A stretch of 64,000 bases of DNA from Stegostoma tigrinum. Taxonomy: Eukaryota. The notes below the pieces were generated by a model. It saw nothing but the letters and a program-made list of their open reading frames with translations, had not been told where the DNA came from and did not search any database. Each line of letters opens with the position of its first letter. Position 1 is the first letter of the stretch. The translations under genes and the position numbers were made by a program. Shown one piece after another: positions 5,314 to 59,454 of the stretch. The DNA is taken from positions 80,438,924 through 80,502,923 of the forward strand of contig NC_081355.1 of NCBI RefSeq assembly GCF_030684315.1. The letters are read 5' to 3'.

Positions 5314-8275
5314 TCAACACCACTTCCCTGCACTCTCCCCGTAGCCCTTGATTCCTTTTGAGATCAAAAATTTGTCGATCTCTGCCTTGAAGGCATCCAA
5401 CGTCCCAGCCTCCACTGCACTCTGCGGCAATGAATTCCACAAGCCCACCACTCTCTGGCTGAAGAAATGTCGTCTCATTTCAGTTTTAAATTTACCCCCT
5501 CTAATTTTAAGGCTGTGCCCACGGGTCCTAGTCTCCCCGCCTAAAGGAAACAACTTCCTAGCGTCCACCCCTTCTAAACCATACATTATCTTGTAAGTTT
5601 CTAGTAGATCTCCCCTCAACCTTCTAAACTCTAATAAGTGCAATCCCAGGATCCTCAGCCATTCATCATATGTTAAACCTACCATTCCAGGGATCATCCG
5701 TGTGAATCTCCACTGGAAAGGCTCCAGGGCTAGTATGTCCTTCCTGAGGTGTGGGGTCCAAAATTGGACACAGTATTCTAAATGGGGCCTAACTAGAGCC
5801 TTATAAAGCCTCAGAAGCACATCACTGCTTTTATATTCCAACCCTCTTGAGATAAACGACAACATTACATTCGCTTTCTTAATTACGGACTCTACCTGCA
5901 AGTTAACCTTTAGAGAATCCTGGATCAACGCTCCCAGATCCCTTTGTACTTCTGCTTTGCAAATTTTCTCACCATTTAGAAAATAGTCCATGCCTGTATT
6001 CTTTTTTCCAAAGTGCAAAACCTCACATTTACTCACATTGAATATCGTCAGCCATTTCCTGGACCACTCTCCTAAATTGTCTAAATCTTTCTGCAGCTTC
6101 TCCACCTCCTCAGTACTACCTGCCTGTCCACCTATCTTCGTATCATCGGCAAACTTCGCCAGAATGCCGCCAGTCCCTTCATCCAGATCATTAATATACA
6201 AGGTGAACCGCTGTGGCCCCAACACTGAACCCTGCGGGACACCACTCATCACCGGTTGCCATTCCGAAAAAGAGCCTTTTATCCCAACTCTCTGCCTTCT
6301 GTCAGACAGCCAATCCTCAATCCAAGCCAGTAGCTCACCTCGAACACCATGGGCCCTCACCTTGCTCAGCAGCCCCCCGTGAGGCACTGTATCAAAGGCC
6401 TTTTGGAAGTCTAGATAGATAATATCTACTGGGTTTCACTAGTCTAACATACTTATTACCTCTTCAAAGAATTCTAGCAGGTTTGTCAGGCATGACCTCC
6501 CCTTACTAAAACCATGCTGACTTGTTTTAATCTGACCCTGCACTTCCAGGAATTTTTGACAATGGATTCTAGAATTTTACCAACTACCGAGGTTAGGCTA
6601 ATCGGCCTATAATTTTCCATCTTTTGCCTTGATCCTTTCTTAAACAACAGCAATTTTCCAATCATCAGGGACTTTCCCTGACTCCAGTGACTTTTGAAAG
6701 ATCACGACCAAAGCCTCCGCTATTTCCTCAGCCACCTCCCTCAGAACTCTAGGGTGTAGCCTGTCGGGGCCAGGAGATTTATCAATTTTTAGACCTTTTA
6801 GCTTTTCTAGCACTTTCTCTTTTGTAATGCCTACCATACTCAACTCTGCCCCCCTGGTTCTCCCTAATTGTTAGCATACTACTCATGTCTTCCACTGTGA
6901 AGACTGACGCAAAGTACTTATTAAGTTCTTCAGCTATTTCCTTATCTCCCATCACTAGCCTTCCAGCGTCAATTTGGAGCGGCCCAATGTCTACTTTTAC
7001 CTCTCGTTTGTTTCTTATGTATTGAAAGAAGCTTTTACTATCATTTCTGATATGACTAGCTAGCCTACCTTCATATTTGATCTTCTCCTTCCCTATTGCT
7101 CTCTTTGTCATGCTCTATTTGTTTTTGTAGCCTTCCCAATCTTCTGATTTCCTCCTGCTCTTGGCCACTTTATATAATGCCTCTTTTTCTTTGATATATT
7201 TCCTGACTTCCTTTGTCAGCCATGGCTGTCTAATCCCACCCCAGATAATCTTTCTTTTCTTTGGGATGAACCTCTGTACTGTATCCTGAATTACACCCAG
7301 AAACTTCTGCCGTTGTTGGTCTACTGTCTTCCCCGCTCGGCTCTGCTTGCAATCGATTTTCGTCAATTCCTCTCTCGTGCCCCTGTAATTACCTTTATTT
7401 AACTGTCATACCATTACATCCGATTTTGCCTTCTCTCTTTCAAACTGCAGATTGAACTCTACCATATTAAGATCGCTGCCTCCTAAGTGTTCCCTTACTT
7501 TAAGGTCTTTTATAAAGTCCGGCTCATTACATAGCACTAAGTCCAGAATAGCCTTCTCCCTTGTGTGCTCCATCACAAGCTGTTCCAAAAAGCCATCCTG
7601 CAAATATTCCATGAATTCCCTTCCTTTGGATCCACCAACAACATTATTCATCCAATCCACCTGCATATTGAAGTCCCCCATGATCACTGTGACCTTGCCT
7701 TTCTGACATGCCCTATCTATTTCTCAGTGCATCTTGTGCCCCTGGTCCTGATCATTGTTAGGAGGTCTGTACATAACTCCCATTATAGTTTTTTTGCCTT
7801 TGTGGTTCCTCAATTCCACCTACACAGACTCCACATCTTCTGACTCTATGTCATATAGTGCCGTAGATTTAATTCCATTCTTAACTAACAAGGCAACCCC
7901 ACCCCCTCTGCCCACCTCCCTGTCTTTTTGATATGTTGTGAATCCTTGGATGTTTAACTGCCAGTCCTGAACTCCCTGCAACCGTGTCTCTGTGATGCCT
8001 AACGCATCATAATCATTCAAGAGGATTTGTGCTGTTAATTCATCTACTTTGTTGCGAATACTACGAGCATTTGGATAAAGTGTCTTAATGCTAGCTTTCT
8101 TATTATTATTAGAGAGTTTGGAAATCCCAAGATGTCTTAAGTTATCCTTCCTTTTTGCTGTATTTCTAGTCTGCCTCGAGCTTAAATCCACCTGTACACA
8201 TGCTATCCTGTTGCTTATCTTTCCATTTAACTCCATACTCCCTGTCTCTTTCACTTTCCCTTTACCCCGACTCAC
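5314..8275 (-). pseudogene. CR1 ORF2 (APE endonuclease plus reverse transcriptase), frameshifted into several pieces
   Basis: APE motifs: NARSIRNKVDEL, GITET, MGDFN, ILDLVL, GGSDL. Linker: KSPGPDRLHPRVLRE, VPDDWKIA. RT: GVPQGSVLGP, KFADDTKI, KCEVLHFG, LVRPHLEYCVQFW, TRGHSLK. Confidence 0.95.
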
Positions 8276-9009
8276 TAGTTTAAAGTCCTACTGACCACCC
8301 TATTTATCCTTTTCGCTAGAACTCTGGTTCCAGATCGGTTCAGGTGGAGACTGTCCCAACGGTACAGATCCCCCCGGTTCCAAAACTGATGCCAATGCCC
8401 CATGAAATGGAATCCCTCTTTCCCACACCAATCCCTTAGCCACGTGTTTACTTCCCTAACTTTCTTTTCCCTATGCCAATTGGCACGTGGCTCGGGCAGT
8501 AATCCGGAGATTATGACCCTTGAGGACCTGTACTTCAATTTCTTTCCTAGTGCTTCATAATCCCTGAACAGGTCCTCTACCCTAGCTTTGCCTATGTTGT
8601 TAATCCCAACATGGACCACAACAGCTGGATCCTCCCCCTCCCGCTCCAATATCCTTTCAACCTGGTCGGAGATGTCCTGCACCCTGGCACCGGGCAGGCA
8701 ACACGCCATGCGGGACGCCCGATCCAGCTTGCATAGGATACTATCTGTTCCTCTAATTATAGAATTCCCTATAACCACCCAGGTGGATAATGTTGTTAAG
8801 AAAGCATATGGTGTTTTGGCTTTCATTAACAGGGGGATCGCGTTTAAGAACCGTGAGGTTATGCTGCAGCTTTACAAAACCCTGGTGAGACCACACTTGG
8901 AATATTGTCAGAGATAATGGGAACTGCAGATGCTGGAGATTCCAAGATAATAAAATGTGAGGCTGGATGAACACAGCAGGCCAAGCAGCATCTCAGGAGC
9001 ACAAAAGCT

Positions 9010-9037
9010 GACGTTTCGGGCCTAGACCCTTCATCAG
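9010..9037 (-). ncRNA. Minimal hammerhead ribozyme core (PLE type)
   Basis: Reverse complement reads CUGAUGA-A-GGGU(CUAG)GCCC-GAAA-CGUC. Confidence 0.75.
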
Positions 9038-9043
9038 AGAGCT

Positions 9044-9071
9044 CTGATGAAGGGTCTAGGCCCGAAACGTC
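9044..9071 (+). ncRNA. Minimal hammerhead ribozyme core (PLE type); predicted cleavage after GUC at 9071
   Basis: ctgatga a gggtctaggccc gaaa cgtc. A stem I is possible between GAGAGCU (9037-9043) and AGCUUUU (9072-9078). Confidence 0.78.
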
Positions 9072-11009
9072 AGCTTTTGTGCTCCTGAGATGCTGCTTGG
9101 CCTGCTGTGTTCATCCAGCCTCACATTTTATTAACTTGGAATATTGTGTCCAGTTCTGGTCGCCCTATTATAGAAAAGATGTGGAGGCTTTGGAGAGGGT
9201 GCAAAGGAGGTTTACCAGGATGCTGCCTGGACTGGAGGGCTTGTCTTACGAGGGAGAGGTTGACTGAGCTCGGACTTTTCTCTCTGGAGAGAAGGAGGAA
9301 GAGAGGTGACCTGATCAAGGTGTATAAGGTAATGGGAGGCATGGATAGAGTCGATAGCCAGAGACTTTTCCCCAGGGCAGGATTAACTGCCACGAGGTGG
9401 TCATAGTTTTAAGGTGTTAGGAGGAAGATATAGAGGGGACGTCAGAGGGAGGCTCTTCACCTAGAGAGTTGTAAGCGCATGGAATAGTTTGCCAGTGGTA
9501 GTCGTGGAAGCGGAGTCATTAGTGACATTTAAGCGACTGCTGGACATGCACATGGACAGCAGTGAATTGAGGGGAATGTAGGTTCGGTTATTTTATTTTT
9601 GGATTAGGAATATTCCACGGCACAACGTCATGGGCCAAAGGGCTTGTACTGTGCTATACTTTTCTATGTTCTATGTTCTGTGTTCTATAAGAACTACCTG
9701 TCTTTTTGGTCCCCCCTCTTGAATGACCTTCTGTGCCACGGTGCCATGGTCAGCTGGCTCAACCTGTCCGCAGTCCTTTTCCTCATCCGTACAGGGAGCA
9801 AGAATCTCATACCTGTTGGTCAAGGTCAAGGGCTGAGGCCCCTGCAATCCTGAACTCGGAATCCCCCTTCCTGCCTCACTTAGAGTCACACCTTGTCCCT
9901 GAACACTTTCTGAATTTGAGTTATTTAATCTACCGGGTGTGACTGCCTCCTGAAACAACGTGTCCAGGTAACTCTCCCCCTCCCGGATGTGCCGCAGGGT
10001 TTGAAGCTCAGATTCCAGATCATTTACTCTGATCCGGAGTTCTTCCCGCAACTAACACTTGCTGCAGATGTGGTCGCTGCCGTTCACAATGGGATCAGCC
10101 AGCTCCCACATCATACAGCTACAGCACATCACCTGTCCAGCCATTACTACTTATTTAGTTAACTTTTACAGCTTATGTATTAAATGCTTTCTAGTACTTC
10201 TCTGCTACATTCTTTTTCAATTAAGCAATTAAACTTTTAAACAATTACACAATACACAAGGATATACATCGAAAAGCCTTACACCTAACAACACACGAGA
10301 GTCCTTCTCGGTTAGAGCTCCCGCTCTTTCTGCTGCTGGAACAGGAATGGAGGGCTCCACCGGTCAAGGTAGGTATTTGCTAATCTTTAAAGCAGAGACT
10401 CACCCACCTGTAGGCCTCTGATCGACGCTCCCGCTCTTCCTGCTGCGAGTCTGTGGACTTTTAATTAGGTTAGAGGAGGAGGGAGGGAGGGAGGCCCTGC
10501 TGCGTAGGACTTGGGGCTTCGAGGTAAGTGTTTAAATAACGGTCGCTTCCCTTTCCAACTGCCTCTCGGCTCTGACTTCACTTCCACCGGGGTCCACTTG
10601 GCCTCGCCTTCTTGAATGTCATATACCCCACTATATTCAGAACTAATGCTTGTCATCATGCAGCCATATCTCTGTAATGACTGCCTAATCATTACAGATT
10701 TACTTAAATGGAAGTTAGTAATTAACTTATTTTGTTATTAATGTTCCATGTATTCAGAAACAGGGCCTTTAGTTTGTTTTGTTTTCTTTGTTATCTTGAC
10801 TCTCAGTGTTTTTAAAGTGTTTTTTCTGACCTTCTTTTCCCTGAATACTATTTTGTTCTCCTGCCTCACCTGATCCCTTAATTTGACAAATTTTCCAGAG
10901 CTTGATCTCTCAACAGCATCATTTAGTTTAAAGCTCTCTCTAATTAATTTGTAATGCAGTTTGCTAGAACTCTGGTCCCTGCTGAGTTCACGAAGACGAT
11001 GGAAGGCAA

Positions 11010-11549: not shown

Positions 11550-12410
11550 ACCTGCAGTATAGTCTGCACTTTTCTTTGTATTGGTGCCCCTCAAATCAGA
11601 ACCCACTTCTATCATACCAGTTTTCAAGCCAGATGTTCATTTCACTAATCTTATATGCCCTCTGCAAATCGGCATATGACTCTGTTAATAATGCAGAAAT
11701 CATTACCCTTGAGGTTCTACTCTTCAGCTTAGTACTGAATACCTTGAGCGGTCTAAACAGAAATACTTTCCTACCCCTACCTATGTCTTGGGTAGCTATG
11801 CGGATCATTGTAACTGCATTCTTCACTCCTGTCCCAAGTTCCTGTCCTGCCATGAGCAGATGTACGATGGCACTGGGCAGATAACACAGCCTTCTGGACT
11901 CAGGATCTCTGCTACATAAAACATGCCTTACTTCCCTCACTGTACTCTACCTGACAACGTTCCTCAGCTCAGCCCTCCTTCAGTGAATGGCTTCCTGTGC
12001 CATGATGCCACTGTCAGTTAGCTCATCTAAACTACAGCCTTCTACCCTCATCCAAACAAGCTGAAAAAAAATCCTCAAACTGTCAGACAATACAAAGGCT
12101 GAAGCTTTTGCACTCATGTCCTCTGGGTCTCCAGGCCACTCGATCCGCAGACATCCTGCCCCTGACCATTGACTAAATCAGAACACATTATCTAAATGGG
12201 TATGACTACCTTGTGGAATAGATTGCCCAAGTAACCTTTCTGTCCCTGGTAGGGTGCAGATTCTGCAGCTTGGTCCCCAGCTCACTGAATCACTCTGGGT
12301 TTCTTGCAGCCGTAGCAACTAACTGTAGATGTGTTTGACCTGGAATGCACAGAAGTCAGAAGCACCTACAATCTGTAATTGCAACATATCACCATCCCTG
12401 CCATCTTTAT
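11550..12410 (-). mobile_element. Degenerate CR1 ORF1 (esterase and zinc-finger region)
   Basis: ORF 11596-11940 reads ...CYLPSA...KLKSRTSRVMISALL...MNIWLENW, paralogous to 8275-8826. Confidence 0.75.
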
Positions 12411-12794
12411 TGTGTATTAACTCATCACTAATGTTCACTTAATTTACTTATTAATGATACTTCTCTGATAAATCTATTTTACTGGCAATGCGTTTTTTTA
12501 ATAATGTTGAAAATATATAATTATTAATAAACTACCTGAGTTGTGATTGAAAAATGAACCTGATAGCCAAAGATAAAGCTCCTTTAATGGTTTGTGTCTC
12601 CCAAAGCTGAACACCTTCGTATTGTTTAAGCTTGTTCACTCTCTCACTGATATTGAATGCGGTGGTACTCCCTTTGCTGTTTCCAGCCTCCCAACTCTCT
12701 GGCTGTTTCTGAACACTACACCACCCTCTTGCACTGTATTAAGCTTCTCAATTCACTTACTCAGGTCCTGATGGATTTCATCCGATTGAAACAG

Positions 12795-13345
12795 CACAGG
12801 AAAAGAATCCCCTTCGGCTCTTTGCACCCGCACAGGTCAAAAACAATTATTTAACTATTCTAAGATAATAAAATGTGAGGCTGGATGAACACAGCAGGCC
12901 AAGCAGCATCTCAGGAACACAAAAGCTGACGTTTCGGGCCTAGACCCTTCATCAGAAAGGGTCTAGGCCCAAAACGTCAGCTTTTGTGCTCCTGAGATGC
13001 TGCTTGGCCTGCTGTGTTCATCCAGCCTCACATTTTATTATCTTGGAATTCTCCAGCATCTGCAGTTCCCATTATCTCATTTAACTATTCTAATCCCATT
13101 TTCTGTCACTTGTTTCAGAGCCTTGTCAACACAAGTGCACATCTAAGCACTTCTTAAATGTTATGAGGGTTTTATTCTGCCTTTACTACCCCTACGGACA
13201 GTGAATTCCAGATTTCCACCAGCCACTGGGTGAAAAAGATTTTCCTCACGGTCCCTTGTAAAACTCCGTCCATTTACTTTAAATCTACACCCCGTCCTCC
13301 AAGGGGAAAATTTTCTTCCCATCTAGTCTCTTTATGCCACTTAAA
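12795..13345 (-). mobile_element. CR1 3'-end fragment hosting a PLE foldback
   Basis: gtgaattccagatttccaccagccactgggtgaaaaagattttcctca is the reverse of the RxxFFTQxxxIWNSL region. Confidence 0.7.
12864..13078. mobile_element. PLE family A foldback mini-element; intact HHR core on the minus strand at 12928-12955
   Basis: Inverted arms meet at ~12956. TSD atttaactattctaa at 12849-12863 and 13079-13093. The plus-strand arm lacks CUGAUGA. Confidence 0.9.
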
Positions 13346-19260: not shown

Positions 19261-19783
19261 GTGGTGTGACGTCTTTTAATGTGCAAGGAGCAGTACTGAT
19301 GTGATAAAGTTACTGGATGAGTAATACCTAAGTATATGATTGTTTTGCAATACTTGTGGTTGCAGAGGAGTAGGGATGCCCCATAGGCCAGAGGTTTTTG
19401 GTTTGTTTGTCAGTCCCTCTGCCCTTCCGATCGTAGAGTCTGGCATCAGCCAAATGCCTACATCTTTGCCCAGTCACAACTTTAAGTCACTGTCCCCCAA
19501 ACATAATTTCTGATATTCTACCCCAACGACCTAAACTACAGACTTTTCTCTTCCACTCCTGATCACTACATAACTGTAATGGATCCAAGATATGTCCCTG
19601 GGATGCTGGTATTCCTTTCCAACCACTGGCTCAGGTATCCTTTCAGTATATGCTAAGTAGCAGACAAAGCTATAAATGTTAAAATAATATTGTGACAAGG
19701 ATCACCACTCTCTAACACCAACTTTGCGTCTTTACCTGCCCCATTGCTTTGTTTGTCTTGTACTATCAATATTATTTTTAATT

Positions 19784-19993
19784 AAGCATCGATAAAATAT
19801 GAGGCTGGAGGAGCACTGTAGGTCAGACAGTATCAGAGGACCAGGAAAGTCAACAAATGGGGTAGGGACCCTTCATTGGGACCCTTCATCAGTTGATTTT
19901 CCTGCTCCTCGGATGCTGTCTGACCTGTTGTGCTCCTCCAGCTCCACGTTTTATCGACTCTGACTTCCAGCATCCACAGTCCTTGCTATTTCC
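19784..19993. mobile_element. Older PLE foldback mini-element
   Basis: Diverged inverted arms (gctggaggagcac...ggaaagtcaac / gttgattttcc...gtgctcctccagc). 12-bp TSD ttatttttaatt at 19772-19783 and 19994-20005. Confidence 0.8.
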
Positions 19994-22900: not shown

Positions 22901-23805
22901 ATTTGTGAGGAAATGAAATTTAACCTCGCTAGTCAGGAGGTGAGCTTGTATGATAAAATTTAAAGGACATCGGACGGACAGTGTATAATGAATTAAGGGA
23001 ATTTACCAGCAATACAGTGATGATTGCTTGTGATGCTAATGGAAAGATGTTGGTAACAGCTGCCAGCTGGCTATACAACAGCTGTAAGTATTACATGTGG
23101 ATTATTATCATTTAATGATGAGAATGGTTCATTTGACCACAACATAATCTTATTCCAAGCACAAAAATGACTACATCTCCTGTTTCATTAGCTTCATGTG
23201 CATATACTGCAAGCCTATTTAATACTGAGAAAGATAGATCAGTTACAATGATAATAAGCAGCAGGTTGTGATTTTGTTGTTATTGCTTTAGAAGAGTTGG
23301 ACTTGTTCATAAGGTGAAACTGGAGTACTGAAAGAGTGATGGCCCCAAATCATTGTATGGATTTGGCTACTTTTAGACGTTTTTTAGTATGGTTGCAGCA
23401 CTGCTTTTTCTTCAGGTTTCTAACATGTTTTGCTTATACTTTTAATGTTCTTAATTCAATTACAAATATAAAAGCATTTACTTAAATCAGTTGCTCTGCT
23501 TTAATTGGTTGCAATGTTAAAAATGAGATCTCAATTGGTGCACTATTTGTTTTCTCCCACATTTTCTAATAATGCAATGCCAAAAGTGCAGGAGGAGATT
23601 TGATGAGGTTCCAGAACTAAGCCTTTAATCTCAATTTCATTGTTGGATATAAGTAGTTGCAGGGAAGAGGACATTTCAGCATCTTGGAAGTCAACACACT
23701 CCTCATCAATCATCACCACTGTCAATCCTTATTATCTTGGACTTTGGCAACACTGCCTTTCTTCACCTAAAGTGAAAGAAAGTTGTAACAAATGTATGAA
23801 GATGC

Positions 23806-24260
23806 AGAAATAATTGGAACTGCAGATGCTGGAGAATCCAAGATAACAAAGTGTGAGGCTGGATGAACACAGCAGGTCAAGCAGCATCTCAGGAGCACAA
23901 AAGCTGACGTTTTGGGCCTGGACCCTTCATCAGACAGGGGGATGGGGAGACGGAACTGGAATAAATAGGGAGAGAGGGGGAGGCGGACCGAAGATGGAGA
24001 GAAAAGAGGATAGGTGGAGAGGAGAGTATAGGTGGGGAGGTGGGGAGGAGATAGGTCAGTCCAGGGAAGACGGACAGGTCAAGGAGGCGGGATGAGGTGG
24101 TAGGTAGGAAGTGGAGGTGCGGCTTGGGGTGGGAGGAAGGGATAGGGGAGAGGAAGAACAGGTTAGGGAGGCGGAGACAGGCTGGGTTGGTTTTGGGATG
24201 CAGTGGGGGAAGGGGAGATTTTGAAGCTTGTGAAGTCCACATTGATACCATTGGGCTGCA
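23806..24260 (-). mobile_element. PLE family A 3' end: GIY-YIG C-terminus, pyrimidine-rich UTR and pseudo-LTR
   Basis: The minus strand from ~24258 reads QPNGINVDFTSFKI (PLE endonuclease C-terminal PxGxN motif). It is followed by the same pseudo-LTR as the foldbacks. The HHR at 23906-23933 has G12>A. Confidence 0.85.
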
Positions 24261-25910: not shown

Positions 25911-27379
25911 GATTATGAGTATAGCTTTCCTTCAATTGTTTTGATTTATTAACAAATTTTTAAATTGATCATAAACATTATGTGTACAATTAAAGTAGAA
26001 AAGGCATGTTATAGCTATCTTTGATATTCCATGATATAATATTCATATTCATTCATAACGCAAGGCTAAAATTGACATGGGCAATTGCAAATATGCTACC
26101 CCCACAAATTCTAAGAAACATATACCCATACAGACAGGAAGCCAAAACAAAACTCTTTTCGCATACAATGATTCACTAATCCCATATGCAGGATCAACAG
26201 TACTAAAGTGCAGACAAAATCAATCTGTTAAGATGTCAGAAATGTTCAACATCGTAAACACTGCTGAACCAGTGTAGGTATTGTAGGTACATAGAATAGT
26301 ATGACTACAGACATGCTATAATCCATAGGATCAGTTAAACATCATTAAATACAACAAAAACTAGAGCAGATTATTCAAGAACATTACAGAGCTGAAGGAA
26401 TGATAGAAGGAAAACAGAATATTTTCCCTGAGTTGGCAGAGCTAAAATCTCAACTCTCTGCTGTGGACAGAAATAATTAAAGATCAGGAGATAACGCCTG
26501 AACTACTAGTTCAGGATAAATCGAAAACGTTCTCTGGAAAAATAGTATCTTTTGGAGAGATCGCTTCTGAGTTCATACTGATGAATGAAGAGCTGAAAGA
26601 AAAACGAAGAAATTAGAATGAACTACATGCATTGCATCATCAACCCAATTAAAAGATTGCCAGTTCAGAGGAAAATATGGGGAACCACGCATATAAATCA
26701 AATCAGGCTCAGCAGGAGCAGGTACAGAACATTGATGTGAACTCTATTAATGCTGGTAAAAAAAATGAGAGAGTTACAAAATTAGGTTGGGGTGCACAGC
26801 ACATACAACAGGAATCTGAGTTCTATTCAACAATACCCCTGTGGCAAAAAAAAGTGCAGGCAGGACACAGATAAAGCCAAATAATCACTGAAGAAACAAG
26901 TAGAAGTTTCCAATCTTCAAAGGAAACAAAAAGGAGGAAGAACAGTTGCAAAGATTGGACAGTTCTTAGACCACTACTGGAAGGGTAAAAAATAAACTAA
27001 GAGTAGGTGAAGCTTCCATTGAAATCAAAAATTACAGAATGTCAAACCAGGCGTCATCTGGAAGCTGAAGAAAAATAATTAACACCAAAAAGATTTAAAC
27101 CACTCAAAACAACTTGAGAAATGAAATCTGGTACAAAATTCTGGGGGATAAACAAATTCTCAAAAAGCAATCATAGTACATGAAAGAAAATCTTCACAAT
27201 GCAAACCAGAACAAACAATATCAATGATTATTTTAGAAATCAAAAACACTTACAAACAAAGCTACAATCACAAAAAAAAGGTATTTCAGTAAATGATCTA
27301 TATCCGAGAGGTATATATGCTCATTTGTCATTGTGAATAGTCAAAATTTCTTTTAGAAAGAAAGGTTTATTTAAATGTA

Positions 27380-27690
27380 AGATAACAAGGTGCAGAGCGG
27401 GATGAACACAGCAGGCCAAGCAGCATCATAGGAGCAGGAAGGCTGACATTTTGAGCCTAGACCCTTCTTCAGAAAAGGTTGTTTCAGAGGAAGCAGGGTA
27501 ACTTCTTCAGGGTAGGCATCCTCAGAAGAGGCTTTGCAGTGGGGTTAGAATTGTTTCAGAGATAGCAGGAAATGCAGATGCTGGAGAATCTGAAATAACA
27601 AGGTGCATAGGTGAATGAACACAGCAGGCCAAGCAGCTTCAAAGGAGCAGAAAGGCTGACGTTTCGGGCCTAGACCCTTCTCCAGAAAAT
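27380..27690 (-). mobile_element. Tandem PLE pseudo-LTR pair (two HHR-like cores 213 nt apart)
   Basis: Direct repeats at 27380-27476 and ~27594-27689. Cores at 27445-27472 and 27658-27685. Confidence 0.85.
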
Positions 27691-32619: not shown

Positions 32620-33930
32620 TTGGGGTGCAGACACTCGCAGGAACATCCACGTCAGAGGCATGGGGTCATTCAAGAGAATATTAGTGAGCTTGCAGGGCCA
32701 ATAGATTCCTTAAAAAAGATGAAGGGCAGGGCCAAAGAGTGCAGAGGACACTTGACATCAAGAGATGCATAGGACTGGATTGGCAAAAGGAATCTGATGG
32801 TGCATATTGAAGACACAAAACTGTGGATATGCTCAAAGATTATAGAATTGCAGGAGTTGCTTAAAAACTGAAATTAGGAAAGTGAAGAGGGGGCATGGAA
32901 GATTACCGTGATGTTAGGACTATCTGGAAGCATTTTGTATGGAATTATGGAGCAAGGGAACAACCAGGAAATAATTAGGGCCCATTAGAGACCAAAGTTG
33001 CAATCTGGATTGAGCCATAAGACAAAGCTGAGATTTTAAATGAGGACCAAGTATTTGCACTCATGTTAGATGAGAACATTGCAGGTTTAGAATTCAGAGA
33101 AGAGGACTGTGATTTACTTGAAGATTAAGCATTGAGAAGGAGGAAGCAGCAACGGTTCTAGTGTACTTTATAGGCTCAAGTCCAGATGAGATGCATCCAA
33201 TGCTGCTGTGGAAGACAAGGGAGAAGGTTTATAGGGGCTCTGTTATTAATTTTAAAATCTTTTCTGTCCACAGGAGGGTTGCCAGAGGACTGAAGGACAG
33301 CTAATATGGTACCATTACCAAATGGGATGGTAGGGATAAACCAGAACTCTGCAGGTCAATTAGTCTAATATTTATGTATGAAAATTACTGGGGGACAGAA
33401 TTAATTTCCATTTTAAGAGGCAAGGATTAATCAAGGCTATTCTGCATGGCCTGTTGGGGGACCATGTCTTTAAAAAAATTGAGCTTTTCAAGGGGGTGCT
33501 CGGATGCGTAGATGAAGGTAAGGCAGTTGATGTTGACTATATGGGCTTCGGTAAGAATTTTGACAAGGCCTCATGTGGTGGACTGGTCAAGAAGCTAAGA
33601 AATAAAAACAAAATCCTGAGGAAGGGTCACTAGACCCAAAACGTTAACTGATTTTTCTTTTGCAGATGCTGCCAGACCTGCTGAGCTTTTCCAACACCTT
33701 TGTTTTTGTTCCTAATTTACAGCATCCGCAGTTCTTTAAGTTTTCATTTAGAAGCTAAGAAACATGGAGATCCAGAGCAATTTGGCAACTTAGTGTTTTG
33801 GTGTCAGTGGATGGAGCTGGTTTGAAGGGAAGAATGGGCTACAACTTTTCCTTCATTCCTTGTTTCTAATTCTGCCGAACCTGTGATCATTTTCCTGGTA
33901 TTTTGTGACTGGAAGTCTGTGTCCAGTAGC
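32620..33930 (+). mobile_element. Degenerate CR1 ORF2 fragment
   Basis: Motifs PDEMHPMLL, VPEDxRTANMVP and AVDVDYMGFGKNFDK. Contains a PLE insertion and a templated insertion. Confidence 0.8.
33603..33749 (+). mobile_element. PLE pseudo-LTR (subfamily C) with HHR-like core at 33626-33655
   Basis: CUGAGGA-A-GGGUC(ACUA)GACCC-AAAA-CGUU. 13-bp TSD agaagctaagaaa at 33590-33602 and 33750-33762. Confidence 0.82.
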
Positions 33931-34789
33931 AAAATGACATCCACATAGAACATTAGTCATTGATGAATTTCCAATTTATACTTCCTTTCTGGTCCCTAAC
34001 TCAGACGTTAAAGCTGAAAGTCAGGATAAAACTATTGAAGCATTGTAAAACAAGAACAAAAAAGTTCTAACTGCACTCTTAAATCTCAGGTCTACTCCAC
34101 TAAAATGTGGGTTCGATTCATTAGGATGTTAATAGGCAGCTTCTCAACCAAGCAACAACAAAAAAAAACTTCCAGATCCAGAAGCTCTGGATGATCACAG
34201 AGTTGAAAACTGAGAGCAGTCTTATCAAAAACACTAGGCTACCGACAGTAATTGGAAGTATCATACCAGGATTGTTCCCAAGTTGATAGAAGAAGAAAAA
34301 GCATGAGTAAGAGATAAGTCAGGGATGAGTCATTGTCTGGAGAAACGTTAATCAGCATATCTTATTTTGTACAAACTTCAGAAGGTGCTATACACAGAAG
34401 CAGGAGGAATCTTATTGCTATTCATTAAAGGCAGTGGTTAGATTTTGAGGAAGAAATTAACACAATAAAGAACCAAATACTGGAAATTTGAACAGAGGTT
34501 CTCCAAACCAAAACACAAGAGTTTGGATGGAGACTGACTATCTTCCAACTTTGACGAGACCATGATTATGGAGAGTCGTGAACCCTCCTGACAGATCAAA
34601 CTTGTGATGTCACAGACTTGTCGGTAAATGGGGTAATATGTATATCTGAATGTTAAAAATAAAATATGAGTGAAGGCTCAGGGAAGTATTAGCATCTAGG
34701 ATCCTGTGAATAGCACCTCTCATAATAATGATGTTATTGATCATATGATCAAGAGACTACCAGGGAAATGATCACAGGTTCGGCAGAAT

Positions 34790-35890
34790 TAGAAACAAGG
34801 AATGAAGGAAATGTTGTAGCCCATTCTTCCCTTCAAACCAGCTCCACCAATTAATGTGAACATTGCTGATCTGACACTTAATTTTACCCACACAATTCCC
34901 ATAACCCATTACATCATTGGTAATTAGAAATCTATCAATTGCTTCTTTAAACATACTTGCACACACAAAAAAAGCAAGAAACAATAGTAGTAAATTCCAA
35001 AGATTCACAATGTTCCGAGTACTAAGCCCTGAATGGCATATCACTTATTTTTAAATTGTGCCCCTTGGTTCTAGACTCCCCACTGAAAGGTAACATCTTA
35101 CTTGCATCTACACTATCTAATCCATCCAAGTATTTTGTAGGTTTCTATGACATCGTCTCTCATTCCTCAAAACTTTATCCTGAGGAGAGACCAAAATTGC
35201 TAAAATATTCTAGAGGCTGTCTGACCAATTCTCCGTACGATTGAAGTGAGACTTCACTGCTCCTTTAATCAAACCCTCTTGTGATAGTAGCTAACATTCT
35301 GTTAGCCTTCCTGATAGCTTGCTTCAGCTCTATGCTAGCATTCAATATCTTTGCACATCCATGAATAACTTCACAGAGGCCAGTATCCCATCACCAAGTC
35401 ACCCTCTATTAACATGTGAAAAGGTCTTAACTCTGGTCTGCCTCCCTCAGAGCCAGCTCTCTACCTCAGCAGAACCTCTGACACTCCTATTAACATCTAT
35501 CAGCCAGGGCTCCTTGATTGGACCAGATTAACAGCCCAAATCAGGGAATTCATATTCTACAAAGTCCACCTGGCGGATCTTGTTACGGCCAGTAGGCTTT
35601 CCAACATCTTAACATTTAAGAATTACAGTGCTCATCTATTTCTCCTACTAAAATGGATAACCATGTACTTTTCCACATTATATTCCACCTGCCATGTTCT
35701 TCCCCATTCACTTAGCTTACCCATATATTCCTGAAGGTGCTCTACATCATGCTCACCACACATATTTGCCACGTACAAATATTTAACATACATTGTCAAC
35801 AGTTTTAGTGTAAGTACAAATCCTTAGAGTACCTCACTAAATACTGTCTACCAATGCAAGAATTACCCATTTATTCCTACTTTGTCTTCT
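34790..35890 (-). mobile_element. Degenerate CR1 3' half
   Basis: ORF 34772-35044 reads NLWNLL...FKEAIDRFLITNDVMGYG. Also the reverse of ctagaaccaaggggcacaatttaaaaataag (RTKGHNLKI). Confidence 0.8.
35362..35587 (-). mobile_element. Probable solo LTR of an LTR retrotransposon, inserted in CR1
   Basis: A ~225-bp non-CR1 block. On the minus strand it begins (c)GTAACAAG, has a CCAAT, a decayed TATA-like and poly(A)-like signal (ttaatagagggtgacttgg), and ends ...gttattCA. No clear TSD. Confidence 0.55.
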
Positions 35891-38410: not shown

Positions 38411-38635
38411 GGGTTAATGGGAACTGCAGATGCTGGAGATTCCAAGATAATAAAATGTGAGGCTGGATGAACACAGCAGGCCAAGCAGCATCTCAGGAGC
38501 ACAAAAGCTGACGTTTCGGGCCTAGACCCTTCATCAGAGAGCAGACCTGATGAAGGGTCTAGGCCCGAAATGTCAGCTTTTGTGCTCCTGAGATGCTGCT
38601 TGGCCTGCTGTGTTCATCCAGCCTCACATTTTATT
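38411..38635. mobile_element. PLE family A foldback mini-element; HHR cores at 38510-38537 (-, intact) and 38547-38574 (+, one C>T)
   Basis: Inverted arms around a 9-nt spacer. 15-bp TSD atctattcttatcct at 38396-38410 and 38636-38650. It sits within old CR1 sequence (~38000-39300). Confidence 0.9.
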
Positions 38636-39334
38636 ATCTATTCTTATCCTATTGGGTTTTAAGTTGGCTTTTCCCCAATTTTTTATTCTTATCTGGTTTG
38701 TTCATTAGCCTCTTCTATTGTCACATGTAAACAATTATGTAGCGATCACTATCGCATAACTGTTCTCCGACTAACATTTGATCTTCTAGTATCACCTTTG
38801 TGGACCATCAGTGCTTCCTTTCTCTTCCTACTGCTGTCAAAAATCCTCCTGAATATATTTGAAGGACTGTTGCCCTTCTTGCTCTTTATATCAGTGTTAT
38901 CGCAATCTATATTTGTGTAAAGAACCTCCCCATTGTAACTACTCAATAGCATTTGTACTTCTCTGCAATTTCTTACAAGTTTGTACTTCTACATTCTTCC
39001 GATAAATTGATGTTCTGTCGATTACGTTGACCAATGTAATTAGACCTCTTTTGTTTCTGATCTTTAGCCAAGTTAATTCTATTGACCATTCTGGGAAATC
39101 CTCTTTTTCTTGCACTGCAATAGTCTCCTTAATTCTTAATCATTATTGCCCTCTGTCCCTCTTTTGGTCCATTGTGACCACCCCTGACACATTATATTCA
39201 GAAATATGCAACATGTAATCCTACACTTCTTTGAAAACCAGGTTGCTGTTAACAGCTACAGCATCACAAATGTACACAGTAATCTTTGCCTACAACTCGC
39301 CAATCTTATTTACCAGAACCCATACATTCACTTC

Positions 39335-44589: not shown

Positions 44590-46120
44590 TGAGGTATTGA
44601 AGATTTGGTGTTGGTTAATATGGTGCCATTGTCTAAGAAAGGCTGTAAGGAAAAGCCTGGGAACTTTGGACCAGTGAGCCTGACGTCAGTGGTGGGTAAG
44701 TTGTTGGGAGGAATTCTGAGGGAAAGGGATTACATGCATTTGGAAAGGGAAGGACAGATTAGGGATAGTCAACATGGCTTTTTACATAAGGAATTGTGTC
44801 TCATTAACTTGATTGAGTTTTTTTGAAGAAGTAACAAAGACCGATAAAGACAGAATGTTGGAGCATATCAAATGGACTTCATCAACGTGTTTGACAAGGC
44901 CCTACATGGTAGACTGGCTAGTGAGGTTAGATCACATGTGATCCAGGAGGAGGTGGCCAATTGGACATAAAAATTGGATTGAAGGTAGGAGACAAAGAGT
45001 GGTGGTAGATGGTTGTTTTACAGACTGGAGGCTCGTGGCCAGTGAAGTGCCACAAGGATCAGAGCTGGATATACTGCTTTTCATCATTTATATCAATGAT
45101 ATGGATGTGAGTATAGGAGATATGATTAGTAAGTTTGCAGATGTCACCTAAACGGATGATGTATTGATCTGTGAAGAACAGTATCAAAGTACAACCAGAT
45201 CTTAATCAGATGGACCAATGGATCAGGGAGAGACAGATGGAGCTTAATTTAGATAAATGTGAGGTACCTGTATTGCATGTTGGTAACACAAACCAGGGTA
45301 GGTCTTATAAAATTAATGGTAGGGCCCTGGGAGTGTTGCCGATCGAAGAGACTTAGGGATACAGGTACATAATTTCTTAGAGGTAGAGTTGGAGGTAGAC
45401 AAGGTGATGATAAAAGGATTTGACATGCTTACCTTTATTGGTTGAAACATTGAGTGTAGGAGTTGAGATGTCATTTTGCAGCTGTACAGGACATTGTTGA
45501 GGCTACTTTTAGAATACTCCATAAAAAATTGATCACTCTTCTATAGGAGGGATAAACCTGAATATGGTGCAGAAGAGGTTTGCATATTGCCAGGACTGGA
45601 TAGTTTGTGTTACAGGGAGATACTGAATAGGCTGGGGCATTTTTTTCCCTGAAGTGTCAGAAGCTGAAGGGTGACCTTATAAAAGCTTATAAAATCATGA
45701 GGGGTATAAATAAATTGAATAACCAATATATTTTTTTCTTAGGGTGGGTGAGTCCAAAACTAGAGGGCATAGGCTTAAAGTGAGATGGGAAAAATTTAAA
45801 AAGGACCTGAGGAGTAAGTTTTCATGTGGAGAGTGGTATGTGTATGGAACAAGCTGCCAAAGTGGTGAAAGAGGGTACAATTTTAACCTTTTAAAGATGT
45901 CTGGATGGGAATATGAATAAGAAGAGTTTGGGGGGGACGGGCCAAATGCTGGCAAATGGGACTAGGCCAGGTTGGGATGTCTGGTTGGTGTGGAAAAGTT
46001 GGACCAACAAATCTGTTTCCATGAGATAATGGGAACTGCAGATGCTGGAGATTCCAAGATAATAAAATGTGAGGCTGGATGAACACAGCAGGCCAACCAT
46101 GTTGTATGACTCTATGAGTG
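44590..46120 (+). mobile_element. CR1 RT to 3' tail, degenerate
   Basis: VPLSKKGCKEKPGNFGPVSLTSVVGKLL...DSQHGF...CLINLIEFF, KFADVT, LNLDKCEV, and tail tgtatgactctatga. Confidence 0.9.
46024..46096 (-). mobile_element. 73-bp PLE family A 3' terminal fragment in a CR1 3' UTR
   Basis: Identical to 8912-8984. Flanked by ccatg at 46019-46023 and 46097-46101. Confidence 0.88.
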
Positions 46121-52061: not shown

Positions 52062-52238
52062 AGATAACAAAGTATAGAGCTGGATGAACACAGCAGGCCA
52101 AGCAGCATCTCAGGAGAACAAAAGCTGACGTTTCGGGCCTCGACCCTTCATCAGAGAGGGAATGGGGAGAGGGAACTGGAATAAATAGGGAGAGAGGGGG
52201 AGGCGGACCGAAGATGGAGAGAAAAGAAGATAGGCGGA
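52062..52238 (-). mobile_element. PLE family A pseudo-LTR with intact HHR core at 52127-52154
   Basis: CUGAUGA-A-GGGU(CGAG)GCCC-GAAA-CGUC. Collinear with 23840-24018. It abuts a plus-strand HE1/CR1 tail at 52240-52310. Confidence 0.88.
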
Positions 52239-52769
52239 GAGGGTTGCTCTCCGGAAGGTCGGTGAAAATTTGATGGGCCAAATGGCCTCCCTCAACACTG
52301 TAGGGATTCCACAATGCTATATCTCAGGCCACTGCTCCTTCCAAGTTGTCTTCTTATATGAATCAACACAGGTGTTACATTGTTGCCAAGAAGTGCAAAT
52401 AAACAATCAATTGGAAGTTTAGAACTCCGACCTTTTTGTATTTCATTCTCTTTGGTGGTTATTTCAAGTTTAAAATATAGGATATTAATTTTCTGTTTGA
52501 TTTCTGTTTTTACTGCTTTCTCTAAAATAGATTCCACCTGTTGTATTATGGCAGAGATTCTAGGTGACATAGGTAATGTATCTTTAACTCAGTCACATGA
52601 CATTGTGAAGTGCAATGTCCAAATATAAAGGTACCCACCTTGCCTACAGTCACTGTCTGCGTAAAGAAATCAGTGTAGTTAGTCAGTTAAGTGCACAATG
52701 CGCACTAACATCCATTAGCAACAACTCAAGCCACATGTATATTGTAACCTTGTAAATAGTTCGTACTTG

Positions 52770-58486: not shown

Positions 58487-58692
58487 TATCAGAGATAGCA
58501 AGAACTGCAGATTCTGGAGTCAGAGATAAACAGAATGGAGCTGCAGGAACACAGCAGGCCAGACAGCATGAGAGGAGCAGGAAAGTCAACGTTTTGGGTC
58601 GGGACCCTTCCTTAGAACCCTGAAATGTCAGCTTTCCTGCTCCTCTGATGCTGTCTGGCCTGCTGTATTCCTCCAGCTCCACACTGTGTTAT
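58487..58692. mobile_element. Older PLE foldback mini-element
   Basis: Arms ggagctgcaggaacacagcaggccagacagcat...ggaaagtcaac and gtcagctttcctgctcctctgatgctgtctggcctgctg...ccagctcc. Degenerate TSD cta(a/g)gaacag at 58477-58486 and 58693-58702. Confidence 0.8.
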
Positions 58693-59454
58693 CTAGGAAC
58701 AGATTGTTTGGTGCATTTGCCACCAACGTCTGCTCACTTTATGGGTAAAAAGAAACAAGAAAAAGTGAGTAATAACTGTTGGTGAATCATTGCCACCTTT
58801 ACAATGCTCCCCAATTATGCAGCTACTCTGGGGCATGGAGAGACAGGACAGAACTGGACCTGCACCTGAAACGGGTGCCAGCTGCTACCCCATTGTTTAC
58901 GTGTGAATGAAGAACAGGACATTTGCTCTGTCATTTCTATTTCCTTTTGTAGCCATAATGAAATTGGCAAACGTTTTGCATTTTAATCTCCCTCAGAACA
59001 TGGAATCAGAGTGAGTAAGCTTGAGAAGCCAGTGAAGACAAAAATAACCCACGTCTTCTAGACTTGAAACTGGTTCTCAGATCATGACACTGTAATCAAA
59101 CAAAGCGCATTCTAGAGAGAGGCAGCAAGTTGCACTGCAATTGTCCAAATCTGAGGTAAAGAAACAGCTGAGAAAATGATTTCCACATTATTAAGAGCAG
59201 CAGTAGAACACTTCTTTCTTCAAAAAAATTGCAATCCTGATCAAAAATGCTCAGAACTATTGTACGAGAAATGACATACTTCACTACTTTCAATTGGCTA
59301 GAAACAGAACTGGATAAGCTTGAATTCCAATGAATGAAGATGTAATTAACCTGTTCTGATAGTAGACTTTTTTTCTCCCAGCTAATTAAGAATGTAATTC
59401 AAAAAAAAATTGATGCAAATTCATTCTGTTTATTGTGAGCGATTGACCGAATGT

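Follow-up and report, generated by a model that had tools for sequence, protein, structure and literature searches.

Short mirror-image inserts in the Stegostoma tigrinum genome are stump-sized inverted insertions of a Penelope-like element, likely primed on both target strands

This work suggested that the mirror-image insert at 8909-9133 of the window (the whole 64,000-nucleotide stretch of Stegostoma tigrinum DNA that was analysed, NC_081355.1) consists of two ends of a Penelope-like element (PLE) placed head to head within one TSD, and that it arose, with a probability of roughly 0.8, through nicking and priming on both target strands. Judged from its sequence, no shorter form exists of what is otherwise an ordinary PLE insertion; the insert has the layout of a classic 5-kb insert minus the middle, and each small mirror-image insert of this kind was likely built afresh from two short cDNAs joined head to head. 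Such foldbacks are stump-sized inverted PLE insertions, a known layout in a genome rich in PLE, and not a new mobile class.

The preliminary description of this DNA had reported a 225-bp insert with perfect 92-bp arms, a 14-bp TSD and a hammerhead ribozyme core on each strand, and these features were confirmed: the perfect arms lie at 8948-9039 and 9042-9133, both TSD copies are 14 bp long, and the core CUGAUGA...GAAACGUC is found at 9044-9071 (plus strand) and 9037-9010 (minus strand). By another measure the arms are 101 nt at 99%, since that alignment extends into the TSD. The insert as a whole folds better than every one of 200 shuffles (z = -29). However, it is not symmetric, which corrects the earlier picture: 39 bp, corresponding to the PLE tail, are present on one arm only. 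With the C of CUGAUGA numbered as +1 of the element end, the features are as follows.

8895-8908, plus strand: left TSD copy, 14 bp, within a LINE RT-coding remnant; the empty site was found in other copies of the host LINE, with the 14 letters shared
8909-9041, minus strand: arm with the tail, spanning -3 to +129 of the PLE end; over 133 nt it matches the 5' pLTR of the intact element in L220 at 99.2% identity
8909-8947, minus strand: PLE tail, 39 bp, confined to the tailed arm (tail as defined in PMC11167929 and in passages of PMC8557442)
9010-9037, minus strand: minimal hammerhead core, whose stem I in register is only 2 bp
9037-9078, plus strand: hammerhead core (9044-9071) with a 7-bp stem I supplied by the junction (9037-9043 with 9072-9078), in the local fold only
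9042-9133, plus strand: arm lacking the tail, spanning -1 to about +90 of the PLE end
9134-9147, plus strand: right TSD copy

In the local fold of the plus-strand core a cut is predicted after 9071, whereas in context this core is buried in the long hairpin. The insert sits in a further piece of LINE-type RT coding sequence, similar to the stretches at 5317-6435 and 7823-8871 (both minus strand), which we take to be LINE-type ORF remnants (an RT end; esterase-like and endonuclease-like frames).

The PLE origin that had been proposed for the foldbacks is borne out by the identity of the longer 8909 arm to the pLTR of an intact element. This element, which was reached by searching with the sequence downstream of the tail (L220, 3768-6998, minus strand, G000:C1), has an ORF of 1076 aa, with an RT followed by a Cys motif and a GIY-YIG domain, flanked by two pLTRs. 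The Pfam matches of the ORF (RVT_1, E 3.5e-5; GIY-YIG, E 1.5e-3) are both below Pfam's curated cut-offs. Its hammerhead cores are 3621 bp apart and flank the ORF, with a truncated tandem copy upstream, which is the partial tandem layout of pseudo-LTRs. The parent thus has what defines an EN+ PLE, namely a single ORF running from RT to GIY-YIG and pseudo-LTRs that derive from partial tandems and carry a hammerhead core, and the inserts have an inverted 5'-truncated copy next to the 5' end, a tail at one end and a TSD, as EN+ PLE inserts do. Furthermore, a C-x4-C-x2-C-x-H motif stands directly before the GIY-YIG domain, as expected of the extra Zn-finger-like motif of the Neptune clade; such a motif between RT and EN is common to Neptune and Nematis, according to part of PMC8557442. 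Solo copies of the element end run upstream into a pyrimidine-rich stretch in the window, and into the GIY-YIG frame in the neighbouring DNA. The classic 5-kb insert (L217) is made of an inverted truncated copy and a full-length copy; it is flanked by a 14-bp TSD and carries the tail at one of its two ends only. In one head-to-head pair of 1.5 kb the arms are identical at 679 of 681 positions, and the family of L220 looks recently active from its sequence. At G000:C1:49657922-49658672 the tail-to-ORF junction is repeated directly, in three copies spaced by 362 bp that are possibly a retrozyme-like tandem.

Four more foldbacks had been described in the window, and all of them are present (at 38445-38639, 12857-13049, 19780-19966 and 58530-58687), but the two-core layout did not hold, the unchanged pair of cores being found only in the 8909 insert. 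The plus-strand core at 38547 has an altered stem III palindrome, the insert at 12864 has one core, and the core pattern was unmatched in the inserts at 19784 and 58487. The copies of the PLE end outside 8909-9133, with their annotated extents, are the following.

12864-13078: foldback with the tail on the plus arm and one core (12955-12928, minus strand), missing from the same site in a related species
19780-19985: older foldback, arms 79% complementary, no intact core
23805-24260, minus strand: solo copy of the PLE end, extending upstream into the pyrimidine-rich 3' part of the element
27379-27686, minus strand: older direct partial tandem, with core, tail and PLE ORF start, then a second copy beginning just before the core
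38415-38635: foldback with the tail on the minus arm, a 15-bp TSD and 5 extra central bases
46023-46099, minus strand: short solo copy, tailed, without the core
52062-52243, minus strand: solo copy lacking the tail, with about 85 nt of the element's upstream sequence
58490-58695: older foldback, arms 86% complementary, no intact core

That the inserts are real and young follows from two observations: short-read contigs from two samples cross from unique flank into an arm of the 12864 foldback, and a contig from a related species, whose flank is about 7% diverged, skips 12851-13080 exactly and so represents the empty site. Together with the empty site of 8909 in LINE copies, this rules out the possibility, raised earlier, that the palindromes are assembly artefacts. 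The window also contains an inverted pair of 89 nt, 98% complementary and 857 nt apart (33812-33900 and 34758-34846), which is not related to the PLE end.

A census was made in 1.424 Mb, comprising the window and 136 stretches of 10 kb from nine contigs. Arms whose heads were at most 60 nt apart were taken as head-to-head pairs, a rule that misses pairs with very long arms and leaves a few of the 65 pairs found doubtful. The sample contained 304 arms, 130 of which form these pairs. That foldbacks are abundant, as had been claimed, is clear from the 54 pairs shorter than 300 bp, which would correspond to about 120,000 in the genome if the rate holds; the strict two-core centre alone has 4144 exact-match loci in the genome. 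However, a core on each strand is not the rule: both cores were recognized in 10 of the 65 pairs, one in 27 and none in 28, by a core pattern that old copies may fail through decay. In the stretch L037-L038, at about 12283-12573, two telomere-type hexamers lie between the arms of a foldback centre. A TSD of at least 8 bp flanks 48 of the 65 pairs and 28 of the 31 young pairs, compared with 16 of 300 random control sites.

The 3' ends of the census arms are at +92 to +95 or at +124 to +129, and we equate these two positions with the two internal start sites that bound the tail in the anole element (PMC11167929). In 61 of the 65 pairs one arm is tailed and the other tail-less, while two pairs are tailed on both arms and two on neither. 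Unpaired arms split 79 to 93 by tail status, with 2 unclear, from which a mixed pair would be expected in 50% of cases (p = 1e-14). This could be explained if the PLE enzyme nicked both target strands about 14 bp apart and primed one cDNA per strand, one strand being primed at the tail-giving site of the RNA (+124 to +129) and the other 35 nt earlier (+92 to +95). Each cDNA, about 95 or 130 nt long, would end by running off the capped 5' end of the RNA, and its end would then be joined to that of the other cDNA, often via 1-4 self-complementary bases, the template usually being one RNA or RNAs of the same source. In the twin-priming model of L1, each of the two cDNAs represents its own part of the RNA, whereas here they would start 35 nt apart and overlap, and the product of such overlapping cDNAs is a palindrome. 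We infer with good confidence that the strands are primed at the +124 to +129 and the +92 to +95 sites, respectively, before their cDNA ends are joined. Against one site per strand, neither start site showed a strand preference in vitro (PMC11167929), and against two primings, the tail rule is broken in four of the 65 pairs, and the full-length insert at L219 is tail-less at both ends.

The point at which the arms stop bears on the RNA that was copied. It had been proposed that the foldbacks turn round just 5' of the core, and this preference was upheld, with 36 of the 65 pairs having at least one arm that starts at -6 to +1. The arms stop sharply at about -3, roughly 4 nt short of CUGAUGA, and many of them have an additional G there. 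Among 144 arms of at least 90% identity, 59 stop at +2 to +56, 39 of the remaining 85 stop at -7 to +1, and 12 of the remaining 46 stop in the next 100 nt, so that the stop rate is 6.6% per nt at -7 to +1, compared with 0.95 downstream and 0.30 upstream. The same peak was seen in unpaired arms (2.9% per nt, compared with 0.64 downstream and 0.25 upstream), which indicates that the stop is a property of the template and not a product of foldback formation. Exact copies starting at -3 number 7339 genome-wide, and among 100 matches listed, all on contig 1 and counted by hand, the preceding base is G in 71. In the same kind of tally it is G in 35 of 100 for the 4256 copies starting at -2 and in 34 of 100 for the 3293 copies starting at -4. 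Classified by eye, 13 of the 100 listed copies at -3 are untruncated with a point change, 33 have host DNA next to them and the others border on element sequence; in the 33 host-flanked solo copies, G precedes 20 (26% expected, p = 3e-5). For 50 of the 4144 centre loci, those listed, the junctions were -3/-3 in 13, -3/-1 in 6 and -3/+1 in 5, so that three junctions make up 24 of the 50, in contrast to the earlier statement that the junction differs between copies. Joins with C as the next base, such as these three, are thus common, while the -3/-2 junction has 61 copies in the genome.

Reverse transcriptases add a C opposite the cap, as known from work on L1 and retroviral enzymes. An extra cap-templated C on a cDNA ending at -3 would explain both the excess of G and the rarity of the -3/-2 join. 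It is therefore somewhat more probable than not, as far as the sequences can tell, that the stop at -3 marks the 5' end of a capped PLE mRNA, with the 95- and 130-nt arms as run-off copies of its leader and with the cap-copied C pairing with a G of the other cDNA. We found no paper describing a cap-derived G in our literature search. Alternatively, with both primings kept and this one step replaced, the stop at -3 could be a stall of the RT at a C-rich tract or at the ribozyme fold; this is a real possibility, if not the one we favour. Stops are also raised at -2, at -4 and through the core region, the parent is C-rich immediately upstream, where the tract could stall the RT without any RNA end, and the excess of G in foldbacks comes in part from the sequence of the opposite arm. 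However, the excess is specific to -3 and persists in host-flanked solo copies, and the -3/-2 junction is rare. Initiator-like and TCT-like motifs around -3 were discounted as too degenerate in pyrimidine-rich DNA. In copies at L222:2776-5332 and L042-L060, the sequence stops at about -3 and then resumes at an internal position of the element, as expected from template jumps following run-off. Tentatively, and at a little under even odds, two primings and the capped end may be combined in one picture: on a capped mRNA, a dimeric enzyme would use two fixed priming sites close to the 5' end, one for each target strand, and run off the cap after ~95 or 130 nt, as in retroviral strong-stop DNA, and the ends would join each other (giving a foldback), the target (a solo copy) or another place on an RNA (partial tandems and pLTRs).

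The proposal that foldbacks form anew at insertion was supported, but its "turning round", understood as one strand folding back, did not fit many pairs, in which neither arm is contained in the other. Of the 61 mixed pairs, 32 have the tailed arm reaching further 5', 22 have the tail-less arm reaching further and 7 have arms that start level, and in 5 of those 22 pairs the tail-less arm is longer at its 5' side by more than 250 nt. Each arm therefore has sequence absent from the other in 22 of the 61 pairs, and neither arm can have been copied from the other unless later deletions were common. Self-priming, in which one cDNA or antisense RNA folds on a short palindrome and copies itself into the second arm, as proposed for rotifer PLEs in part of PMC3846280, is thus unlikely here, even though short palindromes often underlie the junctions and the longer tailed arm in the 32 pairs is what it would give. 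Within pairs, 423 of 484 diagnostic cells have the same subfamily letter, compared with 54% between pairs. Such agreement would also result if one arm were copied from the other, and this, like the possibility that deletions after insertion made the arm starts unequal, counts against two primings. In contrast, the arms belong to different subfamilies in 2 of 45 scorable pairs (L165 and L176), and the central palindrome at -3 is absent from the parent, whose upstream bases are C-rich. L176:1360-1600 is a single foldback with a clean TSD and two arms of different subfamilies, which points to two RNA molecules in this one insertion. Three observations speak for two primings and a defined 5' end of the RNA, and against self-priming: the tail on one arm per pair, arm ends that are independent of each other, and the sharp stop with its extra G.

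MITEs are defined by symmetric terminal inverted repeats, a short fixed TSD and a uniform unit that is copied by a DNA transposase. A separate MITE-like class, as suggested in the preliminary description, was not recovered: the ends are asymmetric in 61 of the 65 pairs, the TSDs are mostly 12-17 bp, the sizes are graded, with foldbacks passing into inserts of 0.3-5 kb that share both ends, and the parent is a retroelement. That a few master foldbacks gave rise to a MITE-like or SINE-like family, with the whole foldback being copied each time, is very improbable, although the inserts are numerous and similar in size and their centres recur in the three junction types among the loci listed. Besides asymmetric ends and TSDs of 12-17 bp, the size range is continuous up to full-length inserts, and the same junction is found with the tail on either arm (for the 8909 type, two cases have it on the -3 arm and one on the opposite arm) and with arms of different subfamilies (2 cases). 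Furthermore, the anole enzyme depends on sequence downstream of the start sites, which is missing from one arm, and the enzyme of this family may need it as well. The inserts also do not have the direct tandem units, each with a complete hammerhead, of non-LTR retrozymes, their order being inverted and both cores being present in only 10 of the 65 pairs.

The core, stem II and palindromic 15.2-16.2 of a type I minimal hammerhead are present, although an Rfam scan of the window found no hammerhead and gave 9 weak matches, with only sub-threshold miRNA-like hairpin matches at the insert. Stem I, which the preliminary description left out of account, is 2 bp in the parent and on the minus strand of 8909, and the 7 bp on the plus strand are made by the junction only. 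The preliminary description suggested that the foldbacks could act as a switch between ribozyme and dsRNA, and a functional switch of this kind is extremely improbable: although the 8909-type junction (6 of the 50 loci listed) completes a type I hammerhead on one strand, with a stem I of 7 bp, the head-to-head order means that transcription from either side reaches the antisense arm first, the unpaired probability of the core was 0.00 at all five transcript lengths modelled (plus strand, equilibrium model), the hairpin of 8909 has -198.8 kcal/mol compared with -11 for the ribozyme fold, few pairs keep both cores, and minimal PLE hammerheads cleave weakly and not as monomers, according to part of PMC4209133. 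Instead, the foldback is predicted to be a dead end, whose read-through RNA from either direction would form a 90-bp dsRNA that buries the ribozyme core. There is a hint of ribozyme activity elsewhere in the copies. Starts at +29, the predicted cut site, number 2402, compared with 383 at +31, and among 100 of the former that were listed, 62 are symmetric joins on a 4-nt palindrome, 12 more have microhomology and the remainder is ~1.6 times the control. Symmetric joins among 100 rows listed were 21 at the predicted cut site, compared with 2 and 5 at two neighbouring 4-nt palindromes. This cluster of ends hints at cleavage in vivo, or at an RT stall at the base of the fold that gives the same ends. 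If the former is true, the second class of ends would show ribozyme cleavage in the germline.

The layout of insertions with an inverted pLTR has already been published, and the EN+ PLE insertions described in the passages drawn on here (Craig et al. 2021, PMC8557442; Arkhipova et al. 2013, PMC3846280) share with those in this genome the 5'-truncated copies, an adjacent inverted 5'-truncated copy, a TSD, a tail of 30-40 bp at one end, a palindrome at the inverted junction and a hammerhead in the pLTR. They differ in that both copies are here reduced to ~95 and 130 nt, in roughly 100,000 stumps. Those passages favour self-priming and give no counts of tail pairing or stop points. In the Poseidon element of Anolis (PAc; Frangieh et al. 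2024, PMC11167929), both strands were nicked and extended in vitro and the enzyme is predicted to be a dimer; both systems have two internal RT start sites, between which the tail lies, and a hammerhead upstream of these sites. However, PAc belongs to a different clade, its hammerhead, which requires protein, overlaps the start of the ORF, whereas here the ATG is 166 nt after the core, and the paper does not cover inverted inserts or the natural 5' end of the RNA. The minimal hammerheads of metazoan PLEs, in the sections consulted of Cervera and De la Pena (2014, PMC4209133), have the same core, palindromic 15.2-16.2 and extra base before stem II, but a stem I of 4-5 bp, whereas that of the parent here is 2 bp, as reported for D. 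virilis; in Schistosoma, pairs of such hammerheads lie 100-700 bp apart on opposite strands. Non-LTR retrozymes are likewise non-coding PLE-derived sequences with type I hammerheads, but they are described, in the part drawn on, as direct tandem repeats and not as inverted pairs (bioRxiv 10.64898/2026.07.22.740005). With L1 twin priming, as presented in part of bioRxiv 10.1101/2024.12.14.628481, the foldbacks share the priming of cDNA from both target ends and joining in inverted order. A search of the main texts of openly accessible papers found neither such foldbacks in cartilaginous fish nor a run-off model for PLE, nor the tail-pairing and stop statistics, all of which may be known from subscription papers, Repbase/Dfam entries or supplements.

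How PLE tandem and inverted inserts form is named as an open question in part of PMC8557442. The pairing and stop statistics bear on this question and can be tested in the existing in-vitro PLE system. In addition, by analogy with the Harbinger repeats of frogs and Penelope of lizards (parts of PMC5625713), ~100,000 built-in hairpins of 90 bp would likely be a large source of dsRNA for A-to-I editing. The insert itself is probably a dead-end by-product, and it is in their numbers that the foldbacks offer clues to how PLEs are copied.
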